Of a DNA stretch of 60,447 nucleotides, positions 29,774 to 43,499 are shown piece by piece. Position 1 is the stretch's first letter. The number at the start of each line of letters is the position of its first letter. The notes below the pieces were generated by a model. The model ran no database searches and had not been told where the DNA came from. It was given only the letters and a program-made list of their open reading frames with translations. This DNA is from a virus. The DNA lies in the IMG/VR virus record IMGVR_UViG_3300017773_000009, positions 1-60,447 of that record; one strand, 5' to 3'. A program made the translations under genes and the position numbers.

Positions 29774-29802
29774 CAAATATATAAAATATTTTACATACGC
29801 AA
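29774..29802 (-). promoter_or_regulatory. Candidate promoter (TTG-N18-TATATTTG, minus strand) for the structural operon; near-leaderless
   Basis: caaatata at 29774-29781 and caa at 29800-29802 on the plus strand. ATG at 29769. Confidence 0.5.
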
Positions 29803-29860
29803 CCCCTTGTGAAAAACCCAACCCCCCATTGTGATTTACCTAACACCCCCTTTAGGTAAA
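29801..29860. promoter_or_regulatory. Control-region repeats between divergent promoters: two AACCCC..TTGTGA direct repeats plus a 9-bp inverted repeat
   Basis: aaccccttgtga (29801-12) and aaccccccattgtga (29820-34). tttacctaa (29835-43) pairs with ttaggtaaa (29852-60). The reverse complement contains ACCTAAAGGGGGT, the core of the iterons at 39988-40067. Confidence 0.5.
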
Positions 29861-29947: not shown

Positions 29948-29977
29948 TTGTTAAAAGAAACAAAATTCGTATATTTG
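29948..29977 (+). promoter_or_regulatory. Candidate early promoter (TTG-N19-TATATTTG), near-leaderless
   Basis: TTG at 29948-50 and TATATTTG at 29970-77. ATG at 29981. Confidence 0.55.
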
Positions 29978-29980
29978 TAT

Positions 29981-30220
29981 ATGCTAATCAAAAGGATTAA
30001 AACATTCTTTAAAGCGTTTGCAAGGCACGCTGAGAATGACTTTACAAAAGTACCAATGGACACATGGTCTAAAAGATTTAACCTGTGTATGTCTTGCGAA
30101 GAAATAGGCAACACAATACCAGAAACATGTAAACAGTGTGGTTGTGTTATATACTTAAAAACAGAATGGGCTTCAGAAGAGTGCCCAAAAGGTAAGTGGA
30201 AAAAATATGAAGGTAAATAA
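29981..30220 (+). CDS. Cys-rich zinc-ribbon-like protein (79 aa from the ATG; the ORF track starts at TTG 29948 inside the promoter)
   Basis: CMSCEE...CKQCGC...ECPKGKW cysteine pattern. Confidence 0.5.
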   Translation: MLIKRIKTFFKAFARHAENDFTKVPMDTWSKRFNLCMSCEEIGNTIPETCKQCGCVIYLKTEWASEECPKGKWKKYEGK

Positions 30221-30473
30221 TAAAGAGTTTCAAGCAACAGTAGAGGGCATAGTTAATTCTATGATTAGTAGTTTTAGTAGTTCATCAAATAACCTTAACC
30301 ACATCTTATCACACCTCAACAATACTGATACGAGACAGTCGATAATAAAAGCAGCTATACTTTTAGCTAAAGATATTAACACTGGTGTAGAGAAGGCAAA
30401 GAATAGTGGTAAGGATAATGTTACAATCATACAGGGTAATCAACATACAACAAACGCTAAAACAGTTTCCTAA
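30207..30473 (+). CDS. Hypothetical protein (88 aa)
   Basis: Complete ORF overlapping its neighbours by a few nt. Confidence 0.45.
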   Translation: MKVNNKEFQATVEGIVNSMISSFSSSSNNLNHILSHLNNTDTRQSIIKAAILLAKDINTGVEKAKNSGKDNVTIIQGNQHTTNAKTVS

Positions 30474-30772
30474 TGTCAGATAAACTAAAAAGAGCAAGGG
30501 CAACAATGAAGAGGTTAGGTCTTAGTGGATTTAACAAAGCAAAGAGGACACCATCACACCCAAAGAAGTCTCACATAGTGATGGCAAAAGAGGGTGATAA
30601 AACTAAACTAATAAGGTTTGGTGAGCAGGGTGCCTCAACAGCAGGTAAACCTAAATCTGGTGAGTCCTCAAAGATGAAGAAGAAAAGGGCATCATTCAAA
30701 GCAAGACACAGGAGGAATATACTCAAGGGAAAAATGTCTGCTGCATACTGGGCAAATAAAGTCAAGTGGTAA
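30473..30772 (+). CDS. Small highly basic protein (99 aa)
   Basis: K/R-rich. C-terminus is FKARHRRNILKGKMSAAYWANKVKW. Confidence 0.5.
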   Translation: MSDKLKRARATMKRLGLSGFNKAKRTPSHPKKSHIVMAKEGDKTKLIRFGEQGASTAGKPKSGESSKMKKKRASFKARHRRNILKGKMSAAYWANKVKW

Positions 30773-31449
30773 TACAAGAACTTAGAGATAACTTTAAGGG
30801 TAAGGAAGTTTTTATTGTTGGAGGAGGACCTTCTCTAAAAAACTTTGACTTTGAATGCCTAAGAGATAAGACAACAATATCTGTAAACCACTCGTTTAAA
30901 TATGTTCCCAATACAAACCTTATAACACACCTTGACTGGAGATTCGTAAGAGAGTATGGAAAAGACGAAACATTTATCAATACAGATAAACTAACATGGT
31001 CTAGACACCTAAGAAACAATAAATACCACGAAGCTAAACTATACCCAAGAGCATACGAGAATACTGCACTGATACATGGTACACACTACCACCAACAGAT
31101 AGGACTGTCAAAGGCAATAGATAAACAACACCCAAAGATTACACTACACACATCTGGTCAACTAGCAATACTTTTCTGTATAGCAGCTAGGGCAAGTAAA
31201 GTATACCTACTAGGCTTTGACGCTTGTCAAGAATACAAAGAACATAATCAGTTTCATGACTTCTTTCCAAAAAATAAAACAGGTGCACCTGCTTATATGA
31301 AACAATCTGTTGCACTACAGAGAATGTTTGACAAGTTTAATAACAAAGAAGAGATAGGGCACTTTTCTAAAAACAATATCATAAACCTTAACCCAGAATC
31401 ATGTATGGGTGTATTCCAAAAAATGAGTCCTGACTTTTTGAAGTCGTAG
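30766..31449 (+). CDS. DUF115/MptE-like (sialyl- or nonulosonate-transferase-like) protein (227 aa)
   Basis: N-terminal KGKEVFIVGGGPSLKNFDF...ISVNHS resembles the GxGPSL nucleotide-sugar-binding start of the DUF115/Maf/Cst-type families. Confidence 0.45.
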   Translation: MVIQELRDNFKGKEVFIVGGGPSLKNFDFECLRDKTTISVNHSFKYVPNTNLITHLDWRFVREYGKDETFINTDKLTWSRHLRNNKYHEAKLYPRAYENTALIHGTHYHQQIGLSKAIDKQHPKITLHTSGQLAILFCIAARASKVYLLGFDACQEYKEHNQFHDFFPKNKTGAPAYMKQSVALQRMFDKFNNKEEIGHFSKNNIINLNPESCMGVFQKMSPDFLKS

Positions 31450-31787
31450 GTCAATAGAAGTTTGGGGTTATATATATTGGTGGGAGCCACGCAGTCCAAT
31501 CCCAAAGTCGTTCTTCTCTAGTGGGTGGGGTCTAGCTTCTACTGGTCTAAATAAAAAGCGACTACTACCTATCCATACCTAGTAACTACTACTACTTTCT
31601 GGATAATTACCAACTACTTTCTGTTGATACATTACATCACACATGCGTACTATATATGCAAAAATAGAACATATGCTCACTGCAAGAGAAAAAGTCTGTT
31701 AGGATTGCTCTAAATGGTCTTATTTCGCACACCTACACAGATGATGCGTAACTCCCTCCCCTATTAAGCCTATTCAACCTTTAAACT

Positions 31788-31830
31788 TTACCAACAAACA
31801 TTACACAATTTACCACAAATTACCACATTT
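31788..31830 (+). repeat. Four phased TTACCAC(A)-type repeats (DnaA-box-like) in the 0.9-kb non-coding region
   Basis: ttaccaacaaac, ttacacaa, ttaccacaaa and ttaccacattt start at 31788, 31801, 31810 and 31820. TTTACCACA matches the relaxed DnaA box TTWTNCACA at 8 of 9 positions. Confidence 0.4.
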
Positions 31831-31993
31831 TGCTAGGTCTGGTATCTAGTAATGTTCACTTTTCAAACTTTAACTTTCAAAATCTGACGTTTTTAGACAA
31901 TTTCAGCACGACATTTTTGATGATTTTGGTGCCAATTTGATATGTTTTTGAAATTAATTTGTATCTAGTAAATGAATTTTTATTTAAATTTAT

Positions 31994-32025
31994 TTGGAAA
32001 TTAAAGTTCAATGTTTGTATATTTG
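31994..32025 (+). promoter_or_regulatory. Candidate promoter (TTG-N21-TATATTTG) for the ribozyme-punctuated early operon
   Basis: TTG at 31994-96 and TATATTTG at 32018-25. About 360 nt upstream of the first ORF. Confidence 0.5.
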
Positions 32026-32279
32026 CCCCAACAATCGTTCATTGACATACTGAATTACTGCGACATCAACGCTCACTAGGTTGCATACCTAGTATACTTG
32101 GCTCTCGTTCTCCTAGATTACCCTCGATGTGATATTGATAGGAAATAGGATAAGATAGACTCCAGATGATATGCGAACATCTCTAATCAAGTAAGGCGTA
32201 GTAATTTAGTTTTTGGGAAGCAGAGTAATCTAGCAAGTAGGTGGTACTACTGCGATGTGGTTACTCTAGGGTTTAGGGA

Positions 32280-32363
32280 AATTCGACAATGTCGAAACCT
32301 ACCTAGTTACTAGTGTAGGTCTAGTAGAGGTGGCTACTCTACTACTGATGAGACAAGCCAATT
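32280..32363 (+). ncRNA. Hammerhead ribozyme HH1, type II topology (stem II open)
   Basis: UGUC (32290-93), GAAA (32294-97), and stem III ACCUAC/GUAGGU with an inner CUAG/CUAG helix. GUC cleavage triplet with C17 at 32321. Stem I hairpin UAGUAGAG-loop-CUCUACUA (32322-44), CUGAUGA (32345-51), then GACA (32352-55) pairing back to UGUC. Confidence 0.8.
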
Positions 32364-32384
32364 AACCCCTAAATTTATTCTATT

Positions 32385-32714
32385 ATGAATTATTACGAAT
32401 TATCTCAAGAGATTTACTATGCTATCAAGAAAGGATTGCCAGTTGTAGCGATATATCATCACGATAACAATGGTACGTTGAAAGGTACAAAAGACTTTCA
32501 CCTACCTAGTCCACAAGTTTCTGGGACATATGCCCAGCAAGATACTTACGCTAGGATGAGAGCATCATCTCTGACTGATGAGATTAAAAACTATGTAAAC
32601 TCTAGTGAACATGAGGTAAGTGTTTACAAGATTTACACTATGGTTGACGATGATTGTTCTAATGAAACAAACAAAGAACCTCTTTTATATTCTTATTTAA
32701 ACAAGAGAAAGTAA
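32385..32714 (+). CDS. Early small protein (109 aa), unknown function
   Basis: ATG follows the ttaacccctaaatttattctatt leader. The stop TAA (32712-14) lies inside stem I of HH2. Confidence 0.65.
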   Translation: MNYYELSQEIYYAIKKGLPVVAIYHHDNNGTLKGTKDFHLPSPQVSGTYAQQDTYARMRASSLTDEIKNYVNSSEHEVSVYKIYTMVDDDCSNETNKEPLLYSYLNKRK

Positions 32715-32774
32715 TACTGATGAGACTTGATGAGTCGAAACATCCCTCACTATCTGGTGGGGAATGTCTATTAC
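32711..32774 (+). ncRNA. Hammerhead ribozyme HH2, type I
   Basis: Stem I GUAAUA (32711-16) pairs with UAUUAC (32769-74). CUGAUGA at 32717-23, stem II GACU-UGAUG-AGUC, GAAA at 32737-40. Stem III is 11 positions with one C.A mismatch and one U.G wobble. GUC triplet; cleavage after C32768. Confidence 0.9.
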
Positions 32775-32803
32775 AAATTATTAACCCCTAAATTTATTTT
32801 ATT

Positions 32804-33103
32804 ATGGTATTTGAAGTATTAAGAGAGAAACTAACCACTAGAGGTGGAGGTATCGAAATTGACTTAACTGAATTTGGTTACGATGACCAGAGAATGACTG
32901 CCTACCAGAATTATCTGGGAGGAGGTATGCTTGGTGGTATTTCTAATGATTGCACAATATCAGATTGGCAAGAGAGTCTTCACTTGAGACATATATCAGA
33001 TATGTTGAGAATGGAGTATGCCAACAGACTAGGTAGACTACTGGATGTAGACTCTGATGTTCTATTAAAAGAACTAGAGGTTAGACCAGTTAGTGCCTAC
33101 TAG
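32804..33103 (+). CDS. Early small protein (99 aa), unknown function
   Basis: Leader ttaacccctaaatttattttatt. The stop TAG sits immediately 5' of HH3 stem I. Confidence 0.65.
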   Translation: MVFEVLREKLTTRGGGIEIDLTEFGYDDQRMTAYQNYLGGGMLGGISNDCTISDWQESLHLRHISDMLRMEYANRLGRLLDVDSDVLLKELEVRPVSAY

Positions 33104-33167
33104 AGTATTACTGATGAGACCTTATAGGTCGAAACACTACTGATGTGAGTCAGAGGTTTCTAATACT
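33104..33167 (+). ncRNA. Hammerhead ribozyme HH3, type I (C.U mismatch at the 15.2-16.2 position)
   Basis: Stem I AGUAUUA pairs with UAAUACU. CUGAUGA at 33111-17, stem II GACCU-UAU-AGGUC, GAAA at 33131-34. Stem III has a GUGA tetraloop and is homologous to HH6, with compensatory changes. The triplet is UUC (C17 at 33160), so the pair closing stem III next to the cleavage site is broken. Confidence 0.72.
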
Positions 33168-33186
33168 AACCCTAAATTAAATTACT

Positions 33187-33363
33187 ATGGACTACAAAAT
33201 TAGCGAAAGACTAAAGATGACAATAGGAAACATTAAACACCAACAGAAGAAAGGTTTTTGCGATGATGAAGATTTAACTTTACTAGAGTACGAAATCAAG
33301 AAACTAGAAGAGGTACTCGAAAGGGTAAAAAAACTAGAAAAGAGTATTACTGATGAGACTTGA
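33187..33363 (+). CDS. Early small protein (58 aa; below the ORF-track cutoff)
   Basis: ATG at 33187 after ctaaccctaaattaaattact. Translation MDYKISERLKMTIGNIKHQQKKGFCDDEDLTLLEYEIKKLEEVLERVKKLEKSITDET*. The last 7 codons are encoded by HH4 stem I, the CUGAUGA core and part of stem II. Confidence 0.6.
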   Translation: MDYKISERLKMTIGNIKHQQKKGFCDDEDLTLLEYEIKKLEEVLERVKKLEKSITDET

Positions 33364-33398
33364 TGAGTCGAAACCACTAGAGATAGTGGTCTAATACT
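33343..33398 (+). ncRNA. Hammerhead ribozyme HH4, type I (fully canonical)
   Basis: Stem I AGUAUUA pairs with UAAUACU. CUGAUGA at 33350-56, stem II GACU-UGAUG-AGUC, GAAA at 33370-73. Stem III ACCACUA-GAGA-UAGUGGU is perfect. GUC triplet; cleavage after C33391. Confidence 0.92.
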
Positions 33399-33417
33399 AA
33401 CCCTAAATTAAATTACT

Positions 33418-33654
33418 ATGAACTACATAGAAGAAAAAGTTGTTAAGATGAAGTCTAAATCTAGGAGAAAAGAATACCTAGATAAGATACAAGAGAGAAC
33501 ACAGAATGATATTGGTAATGTCCTCTGGGCATTGGATATGAATCATCCAGAATCGTATGGTTGGCTACTAGGAGAGCAAGTAACTCAAGATGACTTGTAT
33601 GCTCTAGAGGAAGAACTAGATACGATAAACTCTCTATACATCTACACTGAATAG
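33418..33654 (+). CDS. Early small protein (78 aa), unknown function
   Basis: Same leader motif. The last base of the stop TAG is the first base of HH5 stem I. Confidence 0.65.
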   Translation: MNYIEEKVVKMKSKSRRKEYLDKIQERTQNDIGNVLWALDMNHPESYGWLLGEQVTQDDLYALEEELDTINSLYIYTE

Positions 33655-33708
33655 CAATACTGATGAGACCTAATTGGTCGAAACTACTCCTAGTGAGTAG
33701 TCTATTGC
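33654..33708 (+). ncRNA. Hammerhead ribozyme HH5, type I
   Basis: Stem I GCAAUA pairs with UAUUGC. CUGAUGA at 33660-66, stem II GACC-UAAUU-GGUC, GAAA at 33680-83. Stem III ACUACUC-CUAGU-GAGUAGU. GUC triplet; cleavage after C33702. Confidence 0.9.
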
Positions 33709-33741
33709 AATAATGCAATTTAACCCTAAATTTATTTTATT

Positions 33742-34599
33742 ATGACAACGAATGAAAGAATCTTTCAAGTATTAGAAGAAACTAAAACTAACTGGAATGT
33801 AAACAAGTTACCTCTGGTAGCAATAGATTCAGCTACAGACTACAAGTTTGAGACTGAAACCTATGGTTTGTTTCGCTCTGATAATGGTAACTGGCTAGGT
33901 AGCGTAGGTAATCGCTATGAGGTTATGCCTAATTCAGAACTAGCTGAAATTATGGTTGGTATCCAAGCTAGGTTTGGTGGAGAAATACTTGGAGGTAGTT
34001 TACAAGGAGGTAAGAAGATATACTATCAGATGACCTTACCTAAAGAGAGAATTGGTAATGATGTTATCAAGCGTAACATTACTTGCCTTAACTCACATGA
34101 TGGTACATCTAGTATTGGCTTTGGCTCAACAAATGTTGTAGTATCTTGTAGCAATATGTTTCACAGAGCAATGAAAGACCTATCTAAATTCAGACATACA
34201 ATGTCTGCTAGTGAGAGGTTAGCTATTGCAGTTGATGAATTTCAGAAAGCACTAGATACAGACAGAGCGTTAATGGATGACTTTCAGAAGATGTCTCAAA
34301 TACAGATAGATGAGACTATCCTAGAGAAAGTTATGGGTAGCGTATTCAATGTAGATATGAAGAGCAAGGTCTCTGATAACTCTACCAGAAAGCGTAACCA
34401 GATTTCTCAATTTGAGACTGCTCTAGCTAAAGAGACTAGAGAGAAAGGTGGTACACTATGGGGTCTGTTTAATGCAGTAACATACTATACTAATCACCTA
34501 GAGAAGAAGCAAGACCTTAACTACTTGATGTATGGTAGTGGCTACAAGAAGAACTTGACTGCCTTTAATACTATCAAGAAGTATATGGAGACTGCCTAG
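33742..34599 (+). CDS. DUF932-family protein (phage/plasmid-associated, 285 aa)
   Basis: Layout and motifs (CLNSHDGTSSIGFGSTNVVVSCSNM...; GGTLWGLFNAVTYYTNH) are typical of the DUF932/DUF945 family found on mobile elements. Confidence 0.6.
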   Translation: MTTNERIFQVLEETKTNWNVNKLPLVAIDSATDYKFETETYGLFRSDNGNWLGSVGNRYEVMPNSELAEIMVGIQARFGGEILGGSLQGGKKIYYQMTLPKERIGNDVIKRNITCLNSHDGTSSIGFGSTNVVVSCSNMFHRAMKDLSKFRHTMSASERLAIAVDEFQKALDTDRALMDDFQKMSQIQIDETILEKVMGSVFNVDMKSKVSDNSTRKRNQISQFETALAKETREKGGTLWGLFNAVTYYTNHLEKKQDLNYLMYGSGYKKNLTAFNTIKKYMETA

Positions 34600-34660
34600 T
34601 AATGCTGATGAGACCTCAATGGTCGAAACACTACTGCTGTGAAGCAGGGGTGTCCATTAC
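34599..34660 (+). ncRNA. Hammerhead ribozyme HH6, type I
   Basis: Stem I GUAAUG pairs with CAUUAC. CUGAUGA at 34605-11, stem II GACC-UCAAU-GGUC, GAAA at 34625-28. 11-position stem III capped by a GUGA tetraloop. GUC triplet; cleavage after C34654. Confidence 0.9.
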
Positions 34661-34686
34661 AAATGTTTAACCCTAAAAAAAATATT

Positions 34687-34884
34687 ATGGAAAAAGAATT
34701 AAGAAAGTTATCTGTATGGCTAAAGTCAGCAGACAAGTATGAATTTGGATATGACTCTACATATGATGGCATACTAGAAGAAAAGATTGCACAATCTCAA
34801 CAAGAGGTGTGTCATAAGATTGGAGAGTATATCGAGGAGATACTAGAGATTAAGAAGAAAGAAGATACAAGAGATTGTATTTAG
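34687..34884 (+). CDS. Early small protein (65 aa; start moved from 34639 to 34687)
   Basis: The listed 34639 start lies inside HH6 stem III. ATG 34687 follows tttaaccctaaaaaaaatatt, as at the other cistrons. The stop TAG (34882-84) lies 5 nt before pistol P1. Confidence 0.6.
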   Translation: MEKELRKLSVWLKSADKYEFGYDSTYDGILEEKIAQSQQEVCHKIGEYIEEILEIKKKEDTRDCI

Positions 34885-34888
34885 GGGA

Positions 34889-35045
34889 AGTGGACTACGC
34901 CACTATAAATAGAATTTAAGCGTAGAGCGTTTTATGGTACACTAGATGTAGTAAGTAGGAGGGTAATAGGGAGTTAGCCCCTCGTAAAAATCATCCCCAA
35001 AGGCAATAGTCAATGTGCTTTACATCAGTGTATCATAGAGGTATT
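34889..35045 (+). ncRNA. Pistol ribozyme Pi1 with a long P3 insertion
   Basis: P1 AGUGG/CCACU. Loop CUACG pairs with CGUAG (34921-25) as a pseudoknot. Linker AUAAAUAG-AAU-UUAAG, then A-GCG. P3 UUUUAUGGUA (34930-39) pairs with UAUCAUAGAG (35031-40) and encloses an extended helix. G35041-U35042 is the cleavage dinucleotide. P2' AUU pairs with AAU. Confidence 0.8.
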
Positions 35046-35068
35046 ATTAACCCTAAAATTAAATTAAA

Positions 35069-35344
35069 ATGGCAAAAGTAAAAATTATGCAAAGGTCTGT
35101 GTACCACAAGTACGCAGAGATAGAGATTGAAATTCCTATTTTACCAAATGGTTTTGCAGATGTTGACGTTCAAGAATATCTGCGTAATAACGAACACCTG
35201 TATATTGACAAGATAGACAAAGCTATTAGCGAATCTAACTTACAATATGGGAGTGGTGTAGAGGAGTACAGAGGTATGTGTGAACTAGAGGCTGACTCTG
35301 AATGGAGGTATGAATTTGAGAGTGGATATGGTGGACATCTCTAA
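35069..35344 (+). CDS. Early small protein (91 aa), unknown function
   Basis: Leader ttaaccctaaaattaaattaaa. The stop TAA lies 2 nt before Pi2. Confidence 0.65.
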   Translation: MAKVKIMQRSVYHKYAEIEIEIPILPNGFADVDVQEYLRNNEHLYIDKIDKAISESNLQYGSGVEEYRGMCELEADSEWRYEFESGYGGHL

Positions 35345-35345
35345 A

Positions 35346-35463
35346 ACTGGACTATGCCAGTATAAATAGGAATTAAGCATAGAGCGTTTTATGGTATGTT
35401 AGTGGTGTATAAAATGATAAAGTCTGAGGTTATCAAAACACACTAGCATATCATAGAGGTTTT
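35346..35463 (+). ncRNA. Pistol ribozyme Pi2 with an extended P3
   Basis: P1 ACUGG/CCAGU. Loop CUAUG pairs with CAUAG (35378-82). Linker AUAAAUAG-GAA-UUAAG, then A-GCG. P3 UUUUAUGGUA (35387-96) pairs with UAUCAUAGAG (35449-58). G35459-U35460, then P2' UUU. Confidence 0.8.
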
Positions 35464-35487
35464 ATTAACCCCTAAAACTAAATTACA

Positions 35488-35838
35488 ATGGGATACAGAA
35501 GTGATGTTATCTTTGGAGTAAAGAAGAATTTCAAAGATAAAATTGATGCAATTATCAAGGAGAATTTTACAGAAGATTGCTGGAAGGTTACCAACAAAAA
35601 AATCAATGATGATGATTACAATCGAGGAGACTGGGTTGTATATTCTGCTCAATACCTAAAGTGGTATGATGACTACGAGGAGGTAAGGGCTATAAACAGA
35701 ATCATAGATACTATTGACCATCAATCTAACTCTAAAGACTGCTTTATGGTATGTCTTGGAGAGGATGGAGAGATACACGATGATATTGGAGAGTGGTATG
35801 ATTTCGTTGAACATAAACACGAGATAAAGTTATGGTAA
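35488..35838 (+). CDS. Early protein (116 aa), unknown function
   Basis: Leader ttaacccctaaaactaaattaca. Sequence MGYRSDVIFGV...KWYDDYEEV.... Confidence 0.65.
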   Translation: MGYRSDVIFGVKKNFKDKIDAIIKENFTEDCWKVTNKKINDDDYNRGDWVVYSAQYLKWYDDYEEVRAINRIIDTIDHQSNSKDCFMVCLGEDGEIHDDIGEWYDFVEHKHEIKLW

Positions 35839-35852
35839 GATTTATAGAGATT

Positions 35853-35951
35853 ATGGCACAATTATTCTGGTTACTATTTCAAGCAGTATTTATAGTAGCT
35901 TTTTTCAGCACCATCTTGTATGGATTTATCATGCTTTTGCTTGGTAAGTAG
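35853..35951 (+). CDS. Possible 32-aa hydrophobic (single-TM) micro-ORF
   Basis: MAQLFWLLFQAVFIVAFFSTILYGFIMLLLGK*. The last base of the stop TAG (35949-51) falls in Pi3 P1. No conserved leader upstream. Confidence 0.3.
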   Translation: MAQLFWLLFQAVFIVAFFSTILYGFIMLLLGK

Positions 35952-36014
35952 TGGACTACACCACTTTAAAAAGAACATTAAGTGTAGTGCGTTCCCCCTC
36001 TGGGGGAGGTTGTT
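35950..36014 (+). ncRNA. Pistol ribozyme Pi3 (compact, canonical)
   Basis: P1 AGUGG/CCACU. Loop ACUACA pairs with UGUAGU (6-bp pseudoknot). Linker UUAAAAAG-AACA-UUAAG, then GCG. P3 UUCCCCC-UCU-GGGGGAG. G36009-U36010. P2' UGUU pairs with AACA. By recollection it aligns nearly position for position with the published env25 pistol (CGUGG UUAGGG CCACG UUAAAUAG UUGC UUAAG CCCUAA GCG UUGAUC..GAUCAG GU GCAA). Confidence 0.88.
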
Positions 36015-36036
36015 TAACCCTAAAATTATATTTAAT

Positions 36037-36264
36037 ATGAAAACAAATGATTCAAATGTTATGGAATTTCTAGATGAGGTTGTAACACAAATGTTAGAAC
36101 TAGAGTTTGGAGAATACTATAAAAACACTGGCTTTGATAATGTTGAGGATAAAACTTACACCTTAACTGATGAAGCACAAGATTTCTACAACGAAAGATA
36201 TGATGAAGTCGAAACATTATTTAGTAACTTAATTTTAAACCCAGAAGAAGATGGAAAACAATAA
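36037..36264 (+). CDS. Early small acidic protein (75 aa; start moved from 35920 to 36037)
   Basis: The listed N-terminal extension is translated through Pi3. ATG 36037 follows ttaaccctaaaattatatttaat. Confidence 0.6.
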   Translation: MKTNDSNVMEFLDEVVTQMLELEFGEYYKNTGFDNVEDKTYTLTDEAQDFYNERYDEVETLFSNLILNPEEDGKQ

Positions 36265-36535
36265 ACTAATAGCAGAATTTATGGAGTTACCCACAGAAAT
36301 AATGGGTGCAAAAGAGGTTGTTTATGGTATGAATCACGATGATTGGTATACTGCCGACAACTTAAACTATCATCTGTCTTGGGATTGGCTTATGCCAGTA
36401 GCAAACGAGATTATAAAGTCAAGAGATGAGCAAAATGCTGATTGGGACTTGACTGATTTAAAATATGCTTTGCAGACTACAAATATTGAGTTAGTATATA
36501 AAGCAGTAGTAGAATTTATTAAAGAAGAGGGGTAA
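36251..36535 (+). CDS. Early protein (94 aa), last gene of the operon
   Basis: NKLIAEFME...YHLSWDWLMPV motif. Overlaps the upstream ORF by 14 nt. The stop lies inside a terminator hairpin. Confidence 0.6.
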   Translation: MENNKLIAEFMELPTEIMGAKEVVYGMNHDDWYTADNLNYHLSWDWLMPVANEIIKSRDEQNADWDLTDLKYALQTTNIELVYKAVVEFIKEEG

Positions 36536-36551
36536 TACCCTCTTTTTTTTT
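36524..36551 (+). terminator. Intrinsic terminator ending the ribozyme-punctuated operon
   Basis: GAAGAGGG-GUAAUA-CCCUCUU followed by a U-tract. Confidence 0.8.
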
Positions 36552-36585
36552 GCTCAAAAGTGTAGGATGTGAACTTTATTTTTAT

Positions 36586-36593
36586 TAGATTTG
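36586..36593 (+). promoter_or_regulatory. Candidate -7 box TAGATTTG for the recombination/replication operon
   Basis: Matches TAnnTTTG. No clear -33 TTG. Confidence 0.3.
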
Positions 36594-36643
36594 TAACCTA
36601 TATTCATGACAATTTTGTCAATTAACCCATTAAACTATCGAAT

Positions 36644-36826
36644 ATGAGAATACATCAAAAGGATATGATAGATACTGCAACGAAGTATCTTCTTAACATT
36701 AACAGAACTTTAGATAAAGTAGAATATAAGAAAGGGAAAGTCCTTTTTGCTTATAGTGGAGACCATGTCTACCTCATGGATTTCTCTACAAATAAACTGA
36801 ATGTAATCAAGGTAGAACTTAACTAA
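36644..36826 (+). CDS. Hypothetical protein (60 aa)
   Basis: Preceded by the degenerate leader ttaacccattaaactatcgaat. Confidence 0.45.
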   Translation: MRIHQKDMIDTATKYLLNINRTLDKVEYKKGKVLFAYSGDHVYLMDFSTNKLNVIKVELN

Positions 36827-36839
36827 ATTTATTTTAACT

Positions 36840-37442
36840 ATGGCTAAAACAAACATGGCTATTTGGGACAAGGTCTCAAAGACAAATCCAAAGTACACTA
36901 AACAAGTAAACTTTGGTCGCAAATTTACCAGTATCAACGCTCAATATCAGTTCATGGTAGCGACAGAGCAGTTTGGTGCTTTTGGTAAAGGATGGGGTGT
37001 AGAGGATGAGAACTTCTACGTGGTAACAGAGGGTCTACTTGGATACCAAGCTACGATGTTCTGGAATGATAAGGATGGTAAGCATAGTGCCTCCATCAAT
37101 TCTTCAATCGCTACCCACAATAAGAGTGGTAAACTAGATGATGATTGCTTTAAGAAAGTATCAACTGATGCCTTAACTAAAGGATTATCAAAGCTAGGAT
37201 TCTCTGCTGATATATTCTTAGGTATGTATGATGACAACAAGTATGTTGCACAAGTAACCCAAGAGTTCAAGAAAGATGAAAAGAAACCTAAACTATCTGA
37301 TGCTCAATTTAAAGCTATGAACAAGTTTATTGAGGATGGTAAATCTGATGTAGTTAGAAATAAACTAACTAACTATGAACTTACTGAAAAACAGAAAGAG
37401 TGGTTTACTGGAGTGTTTAAGGTTGAGAAAGCTATATCGTAA
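36840..37442 (+). CDS. Rad52-family single-strand annealing protein (200 aa)
   Basis: KKVSTDALTKGLSKLGFSADIFLGMYDDNKY parallels the Rad52/Sak signature K-x-A-x-TDALKRA...FG. Paired with the downstream exonuclease. Confidence 0.65.
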   Translation: MAKTNMAIWDKVSKTNPKYTKQVNFGRKFTSINAQYQFMVATEQFGAFGKGWGVEDENFYVVTEGLLGYQATMFWNDKDGKHSASINSSIATHNKSGKLDDDCFKKVSTDALTKGLSKLGFSADIFLGMYDDNKYVAQVTQEFKKDEKKPKLSDAQFKAMNKFIEDGKSDVVRNKLTNYELTEKQKEWFTGVFKVEKAIS

Positions 37443-38209
37443 TGGATTTAGAAAAGGCAAAATTAGACCTTGCTAGATTCGATAGTGATGAGGATTACTA
37501 TGGGGATGCTTCTTATGTTACCAATTCAATGCTTGGTAGACTGAAGAAGTCCCCTAAACACCTCTCTCACTACTTGAAGTATGGCTCTGGAACATCACAA
37601 GCGTTAGAGTTTGGGAGAGCGTTCCATCTTTGCATCCTAGAACCAGATAAGTTTACCAAAGAGGTGGTCTTATATCAAGGTAGGAGGGCTGGTAAAGACT
37701 GGACTGCTTTCAAAGAGAATAAGAAAAACTATTTAATATTAAATCAAACTGAATTTGACTCATTGAGGTATATGAGGGATAGTATAATATCAAACGAAAT
37801 AGCTAGAGACCTTATTGACAACTGCAAAAAAGAAGTCCCAATGGTTTGGGAAGATAGTGATACTGGAGTGTTGTGTAAGGGTAAAGCAGATGGAGTAGCT
37901 GATGATTATTTACTAGACCTCAAGACTACAAGAGAACCAAATCTATTTAACTTTAAGAGGAGTGCCATGAAGTATGGATACGACAGACAAACTGCGTTCT
38001 ATCTTGATGGTTTCCAGAAGAGAGACTTTTGGTTTATATGTATAGAAAAGGATGCACCAAACAATCTGGTAATAGCATCTGCATCAAATGAATTTATTAA
38101 CAGAGGTAGGGAAGACTACAAGCAATTATTAGTAGAGTACAAAAAGTATTTTATAGATAAGGAGAGTAAGGAGACCCCACAATCCTCATACGAAATTGGA
38201 ATATTATGA
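37442..38209 (+). CDS. PD-(D/E)xK recombination exonuclease (RecE/exonuclease VIII-like, 255 aa)
   Basis: FGRAFHLCILEPDKF and KGKADGVADDYLLDLKTT motifs. Start overlaps the annealase stop. Confidence 0.7.
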   Translation: MDLEKAKLDLARFDSDEDYYGDASYVTNSMLGRLKKSPKHLSHYLKYGSGTSQALEFGRAFHLCILEPDKFTKEVVLYQGRRAGKDWTAFKENKKNYLILNQTEFDSLRYMRDSIISNEIARDLIDNCKKEVPMVWEDSDTGVLCKGKADGVADDYLLDLKTTREPNLFNFKRSAMKYGYDRQTAFYLDGFQKRDFWFICIEKDAPNNLVIASASNEFINRGREDYKQLLVEYKKYFIDKESKETPQSSYEIGIL

Positions 38210-38712
38210 TTGAATTAAAACCTAGAAGAAATTATATCTTCAGATTAAAAGAGAAGTCTGCTGATGTGTGTAATCACATGGAGGGCATGATATTTGACCT
38301 TGTCAAAGAGGAGATAGGTGTAACTAGAGAAGAAATAAGGGGTCGAGGTAGAGATAGAGACCTTGTTATTGCTAGAAAAGTTATCGTAAATCTTCTTTCA
38401 AACTATCACAATGTACATGAAGATATTTCTGGACTATTTATAAATAGAGATAGAACTACATCTATATACTACATGAAGCAGTTTCTTGATGATTACAAGT
38501 ACGATAGATTGTTTAGAACTGCGTATGATAAGATACTATTTAGAACTGAGTTTATTAACAATAAAAACATAACTCCTTATGAGTACAAAGAAAAACTTGA
38601 AAAAGAAAACAAGTGCCTCCAAGAGAAGATTGAAGGGCTTGGAGCCAAAGTCGAGGAGCTTGAGTCTAAAATCAGAGAGATTGAAGGGACTCAACAACCT
38701 TGCTTATCATAG
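38206..38712 (+). CDS. DnaA domain IV-like DNA-binding protein with a C-terminal coiled coil (168 aa)
   Basis: EIRGRGRDRDLVIARKVIVNLL...FINRDRTTSIYYMKQ parallels DnaA ...SKRRSRSVARPRQMAMAL...FGGRDHTTVLHACRK. Confidence 0.6.
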   Translation: MIELKPRRNYIFRLKEKSADVCNHMEGMIFDLVKEEIGVTREEIRGRGRDRDLVIARKVIVNLLSNYHNVHEDISGLFINRDRTTSIYYMKQFLDDYKYDRLFRTAYDKILFRTEFINNKNITPYEYKEKLEKENKCLQEKIEGLGAKVEELESKIREIEGTQQPCLS

Positions 38713-39004
38713 TATTGTAAAGGCAAATTTCTGTAGCGACAGAGAGTTGAGGAACACAGAGTTCGATATACTTATCTTTGGTTCAGAGTTTGAATGCTTT
38801 GAAATGAAAGATGTAACAAACTATTGTCCTAGTGGTAGGACAACATCTATATATTCTCTAAAGTATTTACTTTCAGAGGACTTTATAGAAATACTTAAGG
38901 AAAAGTCTATGTACAACAATAGACTCTACTGCCTTACACAAAAGGGTAGATACTGCGTAACACAATTTTATAACCAACTTAAATTATTTTCAAATGAAGT
39001 TTAA
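38579..39004 (+). CDS. Hypothetical protein, possible winged-helix; true start uncertain (listed ATG overlaps the upstream gene by 134 nt)
   Basis: The C-terminal part (...NRLYCLTQKGRYCVTQF...) looks wHTH-like. The first 45 or so residues are basic low complexity read out of frame from a coiled-coil gene. Alternative starts are ATT 38714 or TTG 38747. Confidence 0.4.
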   Translation: MSTKKNLKKKTSASKRRLKGLEPKSRSLSLKSERLKGLNNLAYHSIVKANFCSDRELRNTEFDILIFGSEFECFEMKDVTNYCPSGRTTSIYSLKYLLSEDFIEILKEKSMYNNRLYCLTQKGRYCVTQFYNQLKLFSNEV

Positions 39005-39326
39005 ACCTACTGATAAATTTTTTATCGTAAAGAGTGGTAAAATCCACCAAGCAGTTGTCATTGAGGTAACTGAAACAATAGGACTCCCTACAAAAGTAGG
39101 TAGCAGTAACTATGAGAAAGAGAGAAGGGTGCACTACGCTATCTTAGAAACAAAGATAGATGGAAAGGCACTATTTACAAGTTATTTTTTATCTAAAAAT
39201 GATGTTATTTTCTCAAGTTATTTAAAAGCAGTTCGTTTTTTAAAAGAAAATGTTGTATATTTGCAAGCATCAGACGTTCAAGATTTCATAAATCAAGAGC
39301 GTGAGCGTGATGAATTACCATTTTAG
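38994..39326 (+). CDS. Hypothetical protein (110 aa) ending in an SSB-like acidic tip ...ERDELPF
   Basis: The C-terminal DELPF resembles the bacterial SSB C-terminal tip (D-D-D-I/L-P-F). Confidence 0.5.
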   Translation: MKFKPTDKFFIVKSGKIHQAVVIEVTETIGLPTKVGSSNYEKERRVHYAILETKIDGKALFTSYFLSKNDVIFSSYLKAVRFLKENVVYLQASDVQDFINQERERDELPF

Positions 39327-39353
39327 TAACCTAATTTAATTAAATTTTTTATT

Positions 39354-39629
39354 ATGAGTATTATTAACTTAAGTATCAATCTAGAAAAGATTGACAAAAC
39401 AAAAATCATTGAAGGGAAAAAAGGAAAGTACCTTAATGTAACTATCGCTAGAAACAAAGATGGCGAAGACCAGTATGGAAACACGCACTATGCGTTCATA
39501 TCTCAAACGAAAGAAGAGAGAACTTCTGGAGGAGATAAAACTTATTTAGGAAATGGTAAAGAGTTTGTCTTTGACAAAACTCCAACTACTGCAACTACTG
39601 AAGATAGTGGTTCAGACTTACCATTCTAA
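39354..39629 (+). CDS. Small SSB-like protein (91 aa) ending in ...DSGSDLPF
   Basis: Compact beta-rich body, a flexible T/S-rich linker, and an acidic DLPF tip. Sits in the replication module. Confidence 0.5.
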   Translation: MSIINLSINLEKIDKTKIIEGKKGKYLNVTIARNKDGEDQYGNTHYAFISQTKEERTSGGDKTYLGNGKEFVFDKTPTTATTEDSGSDLPF

Positions 39630-39647
39630 ATGTTTTTTAGTTAGTTT

Positions 39648-39679
39648 AAAGGGGGTAGCGAAAGTTATCCCCTTTTTTT
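39648..39679 (+). terminator. Intrinsic terminator
   Basis: AAAGGGGGUA-GCGAAAGU-UAUCCCCUUU followed by UUUU. Confidence 0.75.
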
Positions 39680-39712
39680 ACCAAGAGTTTAACCCACTTA
39701 AATTTATATAAT

Positions 39713-40411
39713 ATGAAAGTACATAGAGACTTTAAGGGTATATGGATACCCAAAGAGATATACCTTCTCAAAGACCTCAACTGGACACAGAAGATACTTC
39801 TGATAGAGATACACTCTCTCGACAATGGAGAGGGTTGTTTTGCTACAAATCAATACTTTGCTAACTTCCTTGATGTAAGTACATGGACTATTTCTACTAG
39901 CATATCTAAGCTAGAAGAACTTAAACTTGTAACCACAAGAACATTCATGAATAAAGGTCAGCAACAGAGGAGAATCTTTACCCTTTTGAAAAACCTAAAG
40001 GGGTTTGAGAAAAACCCAAAGACCCCATTAGAAAAACCTAAAGAGGGGGTTGAGGAAAACCTAAAGCATAATAATACAACTAATAATACAAAGAATAATA
40101 CTAACTCTTCATCAAAAACTGATGCCAAAAAATTAGAACTCTTTGAGCAGTTTTGGATTGATTATGATAAAAAGGTTGGTAAAAAGAGTTGCCAGAATAA
40201 ATTTATGAGATTAAAGATGGCAGACATTGAAGACCTAATGACAAAGGTAAAACCTTATGTTGAGTCAACACCAGAGGTAAAGTATCGTAAACACCCTATC
40301 ACTTGGTTAAACCAAGAGGCATGGAACGATGTAATAATAAAAGAGGAAGAGAAGAGAACGAAAACTTCAAACCTTATAATCGAAACTAATAAAGGAAAAA
40401 TACTATTGTAA
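39713..40411 (+). CDS. Replication initiator/organiser with an N-terminal winged-helix (232 aa)
   Basis: WIPKEIYLLKDLNWTQKILLIEIHSLDNGEGCFATNQYFANFLDVSTWTISTSISKLEELKLV is typical of DnaD/phage replisome-organiser N-terminal HTH domains. Contains iterons and an AT-rich tract. Confidence 0.6.
   Translation: MKVHRDFKGIWIPKEIYLLKDLNWTQKILLIEIHSLDNGEGCFATNQYFANFLDVSTWTISTSISKLEELKLVTTRTFMNKGQQQRRIFTLLKNLKGFEKNPKTPLEKPKEGVEENLKHNNTTNNTKNNTNSSSKTDAKKLELFEQFWIDYDKKVGKKSCQNKFMRLKMADIEDLMTKVKPYVESTPEVKYRKHPITWLNQEAWNDVIIKEEEKRTKTSNLIIETNKGKILL
39988..40067 (+). repeat. Four iterons (GAAAAACCTAAAG(A)GGGGTTGAG-like, about 21-23 bp period) inside the initiator gene; candidate origin
   Basis: Copies start at about 39988, 40009, 40031 and 40052-54, followed by the AT-rich cataataatacaactaataatacaaagaataatactaac. 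Confidence 0.55.
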
Positions 40412-40412
40412 A

Positions 40413-40694
40413 ATGAAAAAAGAAATTAAAGATGAAAACGCATTGGACATGATATTACTTGTTGCAATGTTTAGATGTTTTAACGAACAATTATACAACC
40501 TAAAAGGAGTTCACAAGAAAGTTTTAAAACAAAGATTCAATAGACTTTGTGGTGTAGCAAATCTCTACGAGAAAGAGGTTGTAAAATCACTAGGAGATAA
40601 TGTTGGATACGAAAAGGTTTATGATGAACTAATGGATGTTATAATACAAGTGAAAGAACAGTTTGTTCTTGTAGATAAAAACCCTTTAAAATAA
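40413..40694 (+). CDS. Hypothetical protein (93 aa)
   Basis: Complete ORF between the initiator and the primase-helicase. Confidence 0.5.
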   Translation: MKKEIKDENALDMILLVAMFRCFNEQLYNLKGVHKKVLKQRFNRLCGVANLYEKEVVKSLGDNVGYEKVYDELMDVIIQVKEQFVLVDKNPLK

Positions 40695-40700
40695 ATTAAT

Positions 40701-42425
40701 ATGGAAAGTTTTTCAGATTATGGCATCTACATTGGGCGAAAGAGTGGAGGTCAGACAAAAGTAACTTGCCCAAAATGTTCTAAAGATAGAAAGAATAAAT
40801 CAGAACCATGCTTGTCAGTGAACATTGACGAGGGGGTTTGGAACTGCCACCATTGTGAATGGACTGGTAAGTTAAAGAATGGTAACATGATACAGAGGGT
40901 TCAAAAGAAATCCTATGTAAGACCTAAACACAAACCATTACATGACCTATCACAAAATGTAATATCTTGGTTTAAAGGTAGGGGTATATCTTTGAAAACT
41001 CTAATTGAAAATAAAATTTCAGAAGGTAAAGAGTATATGCCACAGACCAGAAAAGAAGAGAATACTATACAGTTTAATTATCTTATGGATGGGGATTTGG
41101 TTAATGTAAAGTACAGAGATGGTTCCAAGAACTTTAAGATGGTTAAGGATGCAGAGAAGATATTCTATGGTATTGATGACATCATTTCAAATGACAATCA
41201 AGATGTACTAGACTGCGTTATTGTTGAGGGAGAGATAGATAAATTATCTTTCTGGGAAGCAGGTGTAACTAACTGTGTATCAGTTCCTAATGGAGCATCT
41301 GATAAAACAATGGACTACCTAGAATCAGCGATGAACATGTTTGAAAACATGAAGTCTGTATACATAGCAGTTGACATGGATGATGCTGGTAGAAACCTCA
41401 TGTCTGAATTGGCTAGGAGGATTGGAAAGCATAAGTGCTTTAAGGTAAACTTTAAAGATTGTAAAGATGCTAATGAGTTTCTGGTAAAGCATGGTGCAGA
41501 AGATTTAGTTGAATGCTTGAGGAAGGCAGAAGGATTTCCAGTTGAGGGTTTGGTAACTGTAAATGATATATCTGGAGACATTGATAGGGTTTTTGCTGAG
41601 GGATTAAAGAGAGGAGACCTAAGTGGAGACAAAGCCTTTGATGAAATATTCTCTTGGGGCAAGGCACAACTTACAGTTGTTACTGGTGAATCAACTCATG
41701 GTAAGTCTAATTGGGTAGAAGACCAGATGATGAAGTTGGCAGTAAGGTGTGATTGGAAGTGGGCAGTATTCTCTCCAGAGCATTACCCACTAGAGCTTCA
41801 CTTCTCTACCTTTGCAGAAAAACTAATAGGAAAAAACTTTAGTGGTCAGAGGGGAGAAAAAATGTCTGAGGATGACTTATTTGTTTCCAAAAGATTTATA
41901 AACAATAACTTTAAATGGATAAGACCTGAAAAAGATTTGTATACCTTAGATGATATTCTTAATATTGCAAAGGAACTGGTTTATAAGTTTGGAGTTAATG
42001 GTATACTGATTGACCCATGGAACAAGATGTCTCATGAGATTGGTAATAAGACTGAAACAAACTACATCAATGACCTTATGATAAAGTTAAATAATTTTAA
42101 ACAGATGTATGATTGCCACATAATATTGGTTGCACACCCAAGAAAGATGGCTAAAAATCCTACCACTGGTTTGATTGAGATACCTACGCTAACTGATATA
42201 GCTGGTAGTGGTAACTTTAAGAATCAAGCTGATAATGGTATCACTGTTTACAGAAACTTTTCTAATAATGTTACAGAGGTATATGTCCAGAAGGTTAAGT
42301 TCAGACACATGGGTCAACTTGGTAGTGCTGACTATAAGTTTAACATGGTAAATGGTAGGTTAGAACCTATAGTTACTGCTGTAGGAGACCATAGACCAAC
42401 ATATAAACCATATTTTTTATCATAA
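40701..42425 (+). CDS. Bifunctional primase-helicase (T7 gp4/Twinkle-like, 574 aa)
   Basis: Zinc finger CPKCSKDRKNKSEPCLSVNIDEGVWNCHHCEW. Toprim VIVEGEIDKLS and AVDMDDAGRN. Walker A VVTGESTHGKSNW. Walker B GILIDPWNK. Confidence 0.85.
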   Translation: MESFSDYGIYIGRKSGGQTKVTCPKCSKDRKNKSEPCLSVNIDEGVWNCHHCEWTGKLKNGNMIQRVQKKSYVRPKHKPLHDLSQNVISWFKGRGISLKTLIENKISEGKEYMPQTRKEENTIQFNYLMDGDLVNVKYRDGSKNFKMVKDAEKIFYGIDDIISNDNQDVLDCVIVEGEIDKLSFWEAGVTNCVSVPNGASDKTMDYLESAMNMFENMKSVYIAVDMDDAGRNLMSELARRIGKHKCFKVNFKDCKDANEFLVKHGAEDLVECLRKAEGFPVEGLVTVNDISGDIDRVFAEGLKRGDLSGDKAFDEIFSWGKAQLTVVTGESTHGKSNWVEDQMMKLAVRCDWKWAVFSPEHYPLELHFSTFAEKLIGKNFSGQRGEKMSEDDLFVSKRFINNNFKWIRPEKDLYTLDDILNIAKELVYKFGVNGILIDPWNKMSHEIGNKTETNYINDLMIKLNNFKQMYDCHIILVAHPRKMAKNPTTGLIEIPTLTDIAGSGNFKNQADNGITVYRNFSNNVTEVYVQKVKFRHMGQLGSADYKFNMVNGRLEPIVTAVGDHRPTYKPYFLS

Positions 42426-43485: not shown

Positions 43486-43499
43486 CAAAATTATTTAAT

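Follow-up and report, generated by a model that had tools for sequence, protein, structure and literature searches.

Why should nine small genes in the early region of a phage each be preceded, at almost the same distance from the start codon, by the same short sequence? The question is raised by the IMG/VR virus record IMGVR_UViG_3300017773_000009, which we analysed over its positions 1 to 60,447 (hereafter the window, the whole stretch of 60,447 nucleotides), and the sequence, as read in the RNA, is UUAACCC(C)UAAA. The answer that we favour, and hold to be rather probable, is that this motif is the conserved core of a host-type translation leader and makes up the 3' half of a modular cassette, the other half of which is a self-cleaving ribozyme. 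Each small gene of the array would probably receive in this way an mRNA of its own, all of them uniformly built.

Nine leaders and nine ribozymes

The longer form of the motif, TTAACCCCTAAA, starts at 32362, 32781 and 35465, three copies where 0.00 were expected in the window, and the shorter form, TAACCCTAAA, starts at 33167, 33398, 33721, 34668, 35048 and 36015, six copies where 0.27 were expected and a number that 0 of 100 shuffles reached. All nine lie on the + strand between 32362 and 36024, are co-oriented with the open reading frames (ORFs) that follow them, and are 231–947 bp apart. From 5' to 3' they are copy 1 (TTAACCCCTAAA, 32362–32373, before the ATG at 32385), copy 2 (TTAACCCCTAAA, 32781–32792, ATG 32804), copy 3 (TAACCCTAAA, 33167–33176, ATG 33187), copy 4 (TAACCCTAAA, 33398–33407, ATG 33418), copy 5 (TTAACCCTAAA, 33720–33730, ATG 33742, the start of a 285-aa PHROG 1221 protein), copy 6 (TTAACCCTAAA, 34667–34677, ATG 34687), copy 7 (TTAACCCTAAA, 35047–35057, ATG 35069), copy 8 (TTAACCCCTAAA, 35465–35476, ATG 35488) and copy 9 (TTAACCCTAAA, 36014–36024, ATG 36037). 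An initial annotation of this sequence had listed nine copies in front of these ATGs, and all of them are present; it had let its case depend on enrichment over background, and we count nine exact copies against about zero by chance. Its placement of the motif 15–20 nt upstream of the start codons is too narrow as a strict range, as the whole motif covers about −23 to −9; the distance from the start of AACCC to the ATG is 18–21 nt. A close relative, IMGVR_UViG_3300023278_000974 (L001/L122, hereafter L122), with 89–92% protein identity, has an array of the same type.

Each strong copy is preceded on the same strand by a self-cleaving ribozyme recognised through Rfam matches, six hammerheads and three pistols in all. 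The three pistols score above the Rfam gathering score; the six hammerheads reach 28–36 bits, under their gathering scores, and have intact cores (CUGAUGAG/CGAAAC/NUH). Cleavage sites were taken from the family consensus. The first ribozyme is a type II hammerhead at 32290–32362 (RF02276, 36.0 bits, gathering score 37; core CUGAUGAG/CGAAAC/GUC; predicted cut C32321^U32322). It is followed by four hammerheads of type I topology, at 32711–32774 (stem I GTAATA/TATTAC; predicted cut C32768^U32769), 33104–33167 (stem I AGTATTA/TAATACT; RF00008, 32.7 bits; C33160^U33161), 33343–33398 (C33391^U33392) and 33654–33708 (stem I GCAATA/TATTGC; C33702^U33703), and by a type I hammerhead at 34600–34659 (stem I TAATG/CATTA; RF00163, 28 bits; C34654^C34655). 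The pistols are at 34889–35046 (RF02679, 40.7 bits; a long P3 insertion; predicted cut G35041^U35042), 35346–35464 (40.6 bits; long P3; G35460^U35461) and 35950–36014 (54.4 bits; G36009^U36010, model positions 63/64), and the 3' end of the first was placed by analogy with the alignment of the third and by its homology with a pistol of L122. In array order, the predicted cuts would leave leaders of 63, 35, 26, 26, 39, 32, 27, 27 and 27 nt; for comparison, the median 5' untranslated region (5'UTR) of F. psychrophilum is 24 nt (PMC9723704). The motif starts 4–14 nt 3' of the predicted cleavage sites, and 40 nt in the case of the first copy. The motif thus keeps within a narrow range of distances from the start codon and a wider one from the cleavage site, an indication that it acts at the start codon.

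The array looks like one transcript, running from 32018 to about 36551 and cut into single-gene pieces, because the only consensus promoter is the one at 32018 and a terminator-like hairpin stands at about 36526–36551. The promoter is of the host type (TTG ... TATATTTG, + strand, 31993–32025, with its −7 box at 32018–32025) and would drive the whole ribozyme–ORF array. A scan of the + strand over 32018–38773 gave no second TAnnTTTG box preceded by a TTG, either inside the array or beyond it. The hairpin, agaggggtaataccctct followed by T9 (36526–36551, + strand), was read by eye and would end the transcription unit.

Several further observations concern the array and its surroundings. Some 840 nt before it (31450–32290) are without a convincing ORF, and an RNA begun at the 32018 promoter would carry about 290 nt of leader, to be removed by the first hammerhead; this leader gave no Rfam match, and a structured RNA in it was rejected, the fold of 32031–32325 having a z-score of −0.6. 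The stop codon of ORF 33187–33363 (33361–33363) lies inside the 5' part of the next hammerhead (CTGATGAGACTTGA), so that coding sequence and ribozyme overlap. No copy of the motif goes with a small hydrophobic ORF of about 32 aa (MAQLFWLLFQAVFIVAFF...) at 35854–35952, which comes after ORF 35488 and before the third pistol; L122 has a different small hydrophobic ORF in the same place (3319–3437). The 39-nt leader before ATG 33742 contains a small hairpin, ATTGCAATAATGCAAT, at 33704–33719.

Genome setting and transcription

The window represents a phage of about 60 kb, and its G+C content is 35%. Its structural and packaging genes are on the − strand, and the early/replication block is on the + strand at 29981–45375. 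The large terminase is 35–38% identical to podovirus terminases of Flavobacterium, Cellulophaga, Maribacter and Tenacibaculum phages, and matches to the Bacteroidota sigma-A promoter, TTG-N17-19-TATATTTG, are found in many copies across the window. Judged from its sequence, the phage has a member of the Flavobacteriaceae as its host, and given these terminase relatives and promoters the flavobacterial host named in the initial annotation was a sound choice. No phage RNA polymerase was found by PHROGs, Pfam and PDB sequence searches, which included the large virion proteins; with many host-type promoters present, transcription would therefore be the work of the host RNA polymerase. No GenBank phage matched the segment 30000–40000 by megablast. 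The early/replication block also holds one tRNA-Arg(CCT) gene (43414–43486), and the relatives L122 and L124 have one too.

Some TATATTTG −7 boxes end just 3–6 nt before an ATG, at 29970–29983 (+), 54120–54107 (−), 29781–29767 (−) and 7096–7080 (−), for example in TATATTTGTATATG. The −7 box has been located at −12 to −5 (PMC9723704), so these operon-first genes would be leaderless or almost leaderless. Leaderless mRNAs are reported to make up about 5% in Flavobacterium.

The start-codon signature

Bacteroidia do not use Shine-Dalgarno (SD) pairing; adenines at −14 to −11, −6 and −3 are commoner than expected in F. johnsoniae and increase translation (Baez et al. 2019, PMC6847099). The nine leaders are like such SD-less initiation regions, as would fit the host family. 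The UAAA(A) half of the motif falls at −11 to −15 in all nine, an A stands at −3 in 9/9 array starts (0.70 of the other genes of the window), the spacer is A/U-only, there is no complementarity to the anti-SD sequence, and a GGAGG-like run is absent from every one. The mean probability of being unpaired over −22 to +3 is 0.48–0.89 after predicted cleavage. TAAA also peaks sharply at −15 among unselected genes of related and other AT-rich loci (49/436; 147/2061). Since UAAA stands in the register typical of the host and TAAA peaks there in unselected genes, this half of the motif is the known, ordinary host initiation signal. The leaders are unlike the published regions in two respects: UUAAC and the C-run are not part of the published signature, and an array leader would be made by predicted ribozyme cleavage, not by transcription initiation.

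Seven of the leaders contain no upstream AUG and two contain one, at 33713 and 34663. With the AUG at 33713 an upstream ORF of 10 codons opens, which runs into the start at 33742. The AUG at 34663 shares its frame with ATG 34687, so that the ORF assigned to ATG 34687 may begin 8 codons earlier, in which case the motif would be coding.

Contacts with the ribozymes and an anti-motif

Might the motif serve the ribozymes instead, either as a 3' flank that pairs with an anti-motif, closing the ribozyme and masking the start codon until cleavage, or as an unstructured buffer against misfolding? The sequence TTTAGGG occurs on the + strand of the 60 kb only at 32272 and 34880, each time just before a ribozyme; on the 3' side of that ribozyme stands a CCCTAAA with which it can pair (32272/32367 and 34880/35051), so that the two enclose the ribozyme. 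The first (32272–32278) precedes the type II hammerhead and pairs with copy 1: in the minimum free energy structure GGGTTTAGGG pairs with CCCCTAAATT around this hammerhead, lengthening its stem II, and copy 1 has a probability of being unpaired of 0.28. The second (34880–34886) precedes the first pistol, overlaps the stop codon of the upstream ORF, and can pair with copy 7. L122 shows the same arrangement, with TTTAGGG at 3766–3772 before a pistol at 3774. In the type II hammerhead cassette, the predicted accessibility of −22 to +3 goes from 0.37 to 0.60 upon cleavage, and in these two cassettes cleavage would, in the folding model, part the masking strand from the leader.

Several copies, moreover, abut or overlap the last ribozyme helix. 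The motif had been described as lying outside the ribozyme helices, which is partly true; its first T ends stem I of the hammerheads at 33167 and 33398 and P2 of the pistol at 36014, where the alignment to the model has the 3' strand of P2, UGUU, terminating on that T. A role in the service of the ribozymes nevertheless seems to us very unlikely, as the anti-motif exists for 2/9 copies only, the spacing of the motif is fixed to the ATG and not to the cleavage site, and the motif is found without ribozymes both in the phage itself and in cellular genomes. The anti-motif pairing is an add-on and not the main role, seven copies being without a partner.

We also considered a general link between ribozymes and the motif and gave it up for want of cases: a strict scan for the full hammerhead core added only L522 and L525 as credible. 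A viral scan for CGAAAC...TTAACCCTAAA gave at least 119 matches, nearly all of them chance occurrences in coding DNA, and true hammerhead contexts only in L001/L053 (the close relative) and L016.

Occurrence of the leader in other genes and genomes

The favoured reading, a host-type translation leader, can be examined beyond the array. A relaxed motif, A(A/C)C-Y(0-4)-UAA at −27 to −16, precedes 11/53 of the non-array genes of the window (21%) compared with 5.5% of 2058 unselected genes (odds ratio 4.5, p = 2e-4), and among these genes are the − strand late genes at 20226, 21225, 22742, 23866 and 46118. In unselected genes AAC-Y(1-3)-TAAA is concentrated at −22 to −18 (28/66 occurrences), and where TAAA is in register the preceding triplets AAC, ACT and CCT are enriched 2.4–4.7-fold. 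Flavobacterium phage elemoF, with its tight gene packing, has leaders of the AAC-UAAAA type.

For viral contigs the raw counts of the motif and of a scrambled control (each at least 120) are uninformative, and the fraction at gene starts was used. Among the matches listed, 49/74 distinct contexts of TTAACCCTAAA-W7-N1-4-ATG lead into an ORF of 60 aa or more; with a scrambled heptamer of the same composition, such an ORF follows in 3/67 contexts among the matches listed. In prokaryotic genomes, taken one per species, 58/80 of the matches listed belong to Bacteroidota and 81/121 of the matches listed precede ORFs. The genes that follow the exact 11-mer, among the matches listed, include hpf (8), HU (2), ssb (2), rpmI, gap, a csbD-like gene and usp. 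A full-text search of the literature for the motif together with Bacteroidetes gave primer sequences only.

As the collection scans had selected for the motif, loci of hpf, which encodes a ribosome hibernation factor, were sampled without reference to it. In 74 distinct Flavobacterium-like hpf loci, GTTTAAC is conserved at 0.8–0.99 per column, as well as the end of the upstream xerC-like gene, and the spacer before the ATG at 0.5–0.6; the third C is variable (C, A or T). Leaders of hpf in Cytophagales read GTTTAAC(TTT/TT/CCC)TAAA, with GTTTAATCTTTAAA as one variant, and the same position holds GTTTAACTTTTAAAA in Echinicola, GTTTAACTTAAAT in Nitritalea, GTTTAATCTTTAAAT in Marinoscillum and GTTTAACCCTTAAAA in a Cyclobacteriaceae. 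GUUUAAC-Y(1-3)-UAAA is thus common to the hpf leaders of two orders, that of Flavobacterium and the Cytophagales. In both orders hpf lies about 30 nt 3' of the xerC-like recombinase gene.

By this comparison, the conserved element is UUAAC, a short pyrimidine run and UAAA, and the C-run is one flavour of it. The initial annotation had called the C-run invariant, which does not hold: there are 2–4 C in L122, and U or A may take their place in host leaders. It had also offered a phage-specific translation-initiation or RNA-binding-protein site, a proposal that needs to be divided. Its translational part is the best supported, by the fixed spacing to the AUG, UAAA at −11 to −15, A at −3 in 9/9 and strand specificity; the phage-specific part has to be given up, as the same leader precedes many cellular genes of Bacteroidota, and it stands before late genes of the phage as well. 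The motif is thus neither phage-specific nor early-specific.

The alternative on the side of RNA-binding proteins is that a protein, of the phage or of the host, binds to the motif or cuts there and thereby controls the early set together, after the model of T4 RegA/RegB. Nine early mRNAs do carry the same short, single-stranded sequence in the same place, mostly predicted to be unpaired (probability about 0.3–0.99), and GUUUAAC, kept in the hpf leaders of two orders, would suit a host RNA-binding regulator. We nonetheless regard this alternative as quite unlikely: the window yielded no candidate for such an RNA-binding protein or nuclease, relaxed copies stand before late structural genes and host genes, unlike what an early-specific switch would show, and the length of the C-run and the flanks vary freely between close relatives.

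A wider version of the translational reading can be offered tentatively, as a possibility that we would put well short of probable. UUAAC-(pyrimidine)1-3-UAAA, about 20 nt before the AUG, would be a Bacteroidota-wide, epsilon-like, SD-independent enhancer, and its recognition would fall to bS1 or to some other component of the 30S platform. Among its users would be host genes that are expressed strongly or induced by stress (hpf, HU, ssb, rpmI, gap); flavobacterial phages would have taken it over from them, and in this phage it would be fused to ribozymes as portable cut-and-translate cassettes.

Exchange of modules with a close relative

Comparison with L122 shows what is kept and what is exchanged. 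The motif variants of L122 are ACCCTAAA, AAACCCTAAA, AACCCTTAAA and AACCTAAA. L122 has a pistol that matches the one before ORF 35069 at about 87% identity through the entire leader; the similarity ends at about −3 of the ATG, and the ORFs beyond are unrelated. The ribozyme before ORF 35488 is a pistol in the window but a hammerhead in L122, and upstream of this ORF only TTAACCC(C/T)TAAA is shared. ORF 32385 has a type II hammerhead before one of its two copies and a type I hammerhead before the other (window versus L122). The L122 homologue of ORF 35069 is without a ribozyme and without the motif. Since the motif persists beside changed neighbours, and homology ends at the leader, the leader also appears to act as the joint at which ribozymes and ORFs recombine, or else to have been re-selected each time. 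The cassette-shuffling boundary suggested in the initial annotation is thereby supported, as a consequence: ribozymes and ORFs have swapped partners between the two genomes, with breaks at the leader.

Taken further, these observations lead to the alternative that the motif is mainly a recombination joint, its likeness kept up by microhomology for exchange of the Erf/RecE type and its effect on translation incidental. The same pistol before unrelated ORFs, the change of ribozyme before ORFs 35488 and 32385, the breaks at the leader or ATG, and the joint absence of ribozyme and motif before the L122 homologue of ORF 35069 all favour it, as do the exonuclease VIII-like and Erf-related, annealing-type genes at 36840–38209. 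But 11–25 nt is a very short homology, and a recombination joint does not need a fixed distance to the ATG, an A at −3 in 9/9 or UAAA in the host register. The motif is found, moreover, before single-copy cellular genes and late phage genes without cassette structure. We consider it unlikely that recombination is the main role.

Neither an array nor a run of motifs is present in the more distant relatives L125–L161 (primase). In MW202828.1, whose terminase is 38% identical and which has no ribozymes (L610, MW202828.1 30001–60850), the equivalent genome region holds a repeated intercistronic element of another kind: a perfect 16-bp palindrome, GTGTCGTTAACGACAC, containing GTTAAC, sits 20–45 nt before at least 7 early ORFs (14573, 14840, 15631, 15925, 17708, 18962 and 19907).

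Degenerate copies and related repeats

Degenerate copies had been noted before the ATGs at 36644, 39354, 39713 and 44371; these exist, and we find an additional one at 40680–40691. All are on the + strand. They are TTAACCCATTAAAC at 36622–36635, without a ribozyme and after a terminator-like hairpin (ATG 36644); TAACCTAATTTAA at 39318–39330 (ATG 39354); TTTAACCCACTTAAA at 39688–39702, also after a terminator-like hairpin and before the replication initiator gene (ATG 39713); AACCCTTTAAAA at 40680–40691, within the 3' end of the preceding ORF and before the primase/helicase gene (ATG 40701); and TTAACCTATTTAAA at 44346–44359, overlapping the preceding stop codon (ATG 44371).

The positions of the copies at 36622 and 39688 after terminator-like hairpins are one of two features in favour of a role on DNA, in which the motif would be either an operator, of the replication initiator or of a repressor, or the promoter of a non-host polymerase. 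The other feature is the resemblance of the core AACC(C)TAAA to four iterons at 39987–40066, AAAACCTAAAG. Several observations speak against such a role, which we hold to be extremely improbable. The motif has a single orientation and no dyad symmetry, and the nine strong copies have 3–4 C where the iterons have 2; no host-type promoter lies within the array, and a phage RNA polymerase was not found. The G of the TAnnTTTG −7 box is absent in 9/9 copies and TTT is rightly placed in 3/9, and there is no fixed distance to −7 boxes among the cellular and viral matches. Two related ideas were rejected on such grounds: the motif as the 5' end of primary transcripts, for which there is no preferred distance to TAnnTTTG boxes, and the motif as a promoter for a phage RNA polymerase, for which the large virion proteins, compared with PHROGs, Pfam and PDB sequences, gave no polymerase.

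The initial annotation had tied an operator to occurrences of the core at 29801–29834 and, inverted, in the iterons. Those elements differ from the motif, which is without a dyad and lies inside one transcription unit without internal promoters, and the iteron core, AAAACC(T/C)AAAG, is direct and not inverted. The region 29797–29860 is a divergent promoter region between the two strand blocks, with direct repeats ACGCAACCCC/ACCCAACCCC and a perfect 9-bp inverted repeat, TTTACCTAA-N8-TTAGGTAAA; these repeats are a possible operator. The four direct iterons, of consensus (A/T)G(A/G)AAAACC(T/C)AAAG, are spaced 21–23 bp apart inside the replication initiator gene (39713–40411) and are followed by two copies of TAATAATACAA(C/A); their core is like that of the leader motif but has two C and different flanks. 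The segment 39987–40066 is a probable origin with iterons.

A model of the cassettes

The favoured reading of the motif as a translation leader joined to a ribozyme can be put as a sequence of steps. As far as the DNA alone can tell, the host RNA polymerase would start at the TATATTTG promoter at 32018 and make one long early RNA, which the nine hammerhead and pistol ribozymes, given their Rfam matches and intact cores, would cut co-transcriptionally. The products would be RNAs that each carry one downstream ORF, begin with a 5'-OH end and have a leader of 26–39 nt (63 nt in the first), about the normal length of a flavobacterial 5'UTR. UAAA at −11 to −15 and A at −3 would then act as the known positive determinants of SD-less initiation on Bacteroidia ribosomes, and UUAAC with its pyrimidines would be an epsilon-like upstream extension that most likely aids the binding of the 30S subunit or bS1, or keeps the site single-stranded. 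The sequence of about 25 nt common to every cassette may in addition serve as microhomology for the reassortment of modules with the Erf/RecE-type functions, and reassortment at the leader would in turn keep the copies alike.

Several points weigh against this model. The nine consecutive copies (9/9) could owe much to common descent or to gene conversion between cassettes, and not to selection on each copy, and the cleavage, the 5' ends and the translational effect are all things that we infer. The predicted accessibility of the site increases just modestly with cleavage, the AUGs at 33713 and 34663 are not ideal in a Bacteroidia initiation region, and the pairing of two copies with an upstream anti-motif hints at an extra structural role. 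Counts from the collection scans are lower bounds with one scrambled control. AAC-Y adds only about 2-fold over UAAA alone, and the strict CCCTAAA is rare upstream of genes: it precedes 8/1512 predicted viral genes, where it ranked first of 140 permutations, though with 8 genes only, and 1/788 genes neighbouring the genome matches, upstream of which it is not enriched. The motif would accordingly be a minority leader type and not a general requirement for initiation.

Comparison with known systems

A close likeness, which bears on the UUAAC half, is to the leader of T7 gene 10, of which the epsilon (Enh) enhancer is UUAACUUUA (PMC8748333; Olins and Rangwala 1989 cited there); the pairing of epsilon with 16S rRNA (helix 17, nt 458–466 in E. 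coli) is disputed (PMC8748333). In the T7 leader TGTTTAACTTTAAG starts 25 nt before the ATG, and in the window TGTTTAACCCTAAA starts 22–23 nt before it (copies at 34665 and 36012); the T of TTAAC is 19–23 nt from the ATG in the array, compared with 25 nt in T7. Array and epsilon (GTTTAACTTTAAG) thus have an identical UUAAC at a similar distance from the ATG, and in both an A/U-plus-pyrimidine element stands upstream of the core ribosome site in a phage leader. The hpf leader of Echinicola, GTTTAACTTTTAAAA, is nearly identical to epsilon, and Cytophagales hpf leaders carry UUAACUUUUAAA. The two are unlike in that epsilon acts with a strong SD sequence in E. coli, whereas the array is without an SD sequence and its pyrimidines are C and not U. 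The resemblance is one seen by eye, apart from any membership or statistical test. GUUUAAC-Y-UAAA in hpf leaders, taken with this likeness to epsilon, nevertheless offers a concrete candidate for how the ribosomes of Bacteroidia choose and rank their starts.

That one short sequence recurs where many early mRNAs initiate translation also recalls T4, where RegB targets GGAG in early SD sequences and RegA is a repressor at early initiation regions. Unlike those targets, the array motif also occurs in late genes and host genes, and no RegA-like or RegB-like gene was found in the window.

As a set of boundary repeats, the array resembles the promoter-early stem-loop (PeSL) mobile cassettes of T4-type phages, reportedly described by Arbiol and co-workers in 2010, and other boundary sequences of hyperplastic regions. 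In these too, repeats flank small early ORFs of unknown function, and related genomes exchange ORFs there. A PeSL, in contrast, has an early promoter and a terminator-like stem-loop, and the repeat of the array is a ribozyme and a translation leader, with no promoter in it.

The roles of phage ribozymes are still termed largely elusive in reviews (PMC6765202). Nine ribozymes, each followed by the same leader at a distance fixed by the start codon, are the clearest sequence-level argument that we can offer for the dicing of a polycistronic early RNA into pieces that have uniform leaders and could be translated one by one. A parallel to such an arrangement lies in the ribozyme-based 5'UTR insulators of the RiboJ type, reportedly introduced by Lou and colleagues in 2012. 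In both, a self-cleaving ribozyme (predicted in the array) stands right before the ribosome site, where it removes variable upstream RNA and leaves a short 5'-OH leader, so that expression would be independent of context. The array is unlike RiboJ in being natural, in having nine ribozymes of two classes in tandem in one operon, and in lacking a dedicated downstream hairpin, save the small one at 33704–33719. The array would thus be a natural counterpart of these engineered insulators, and its leader of 25–35 nt, with or without the ribozyme, may be a ready-made part for gene expression in Flavobacteriia.

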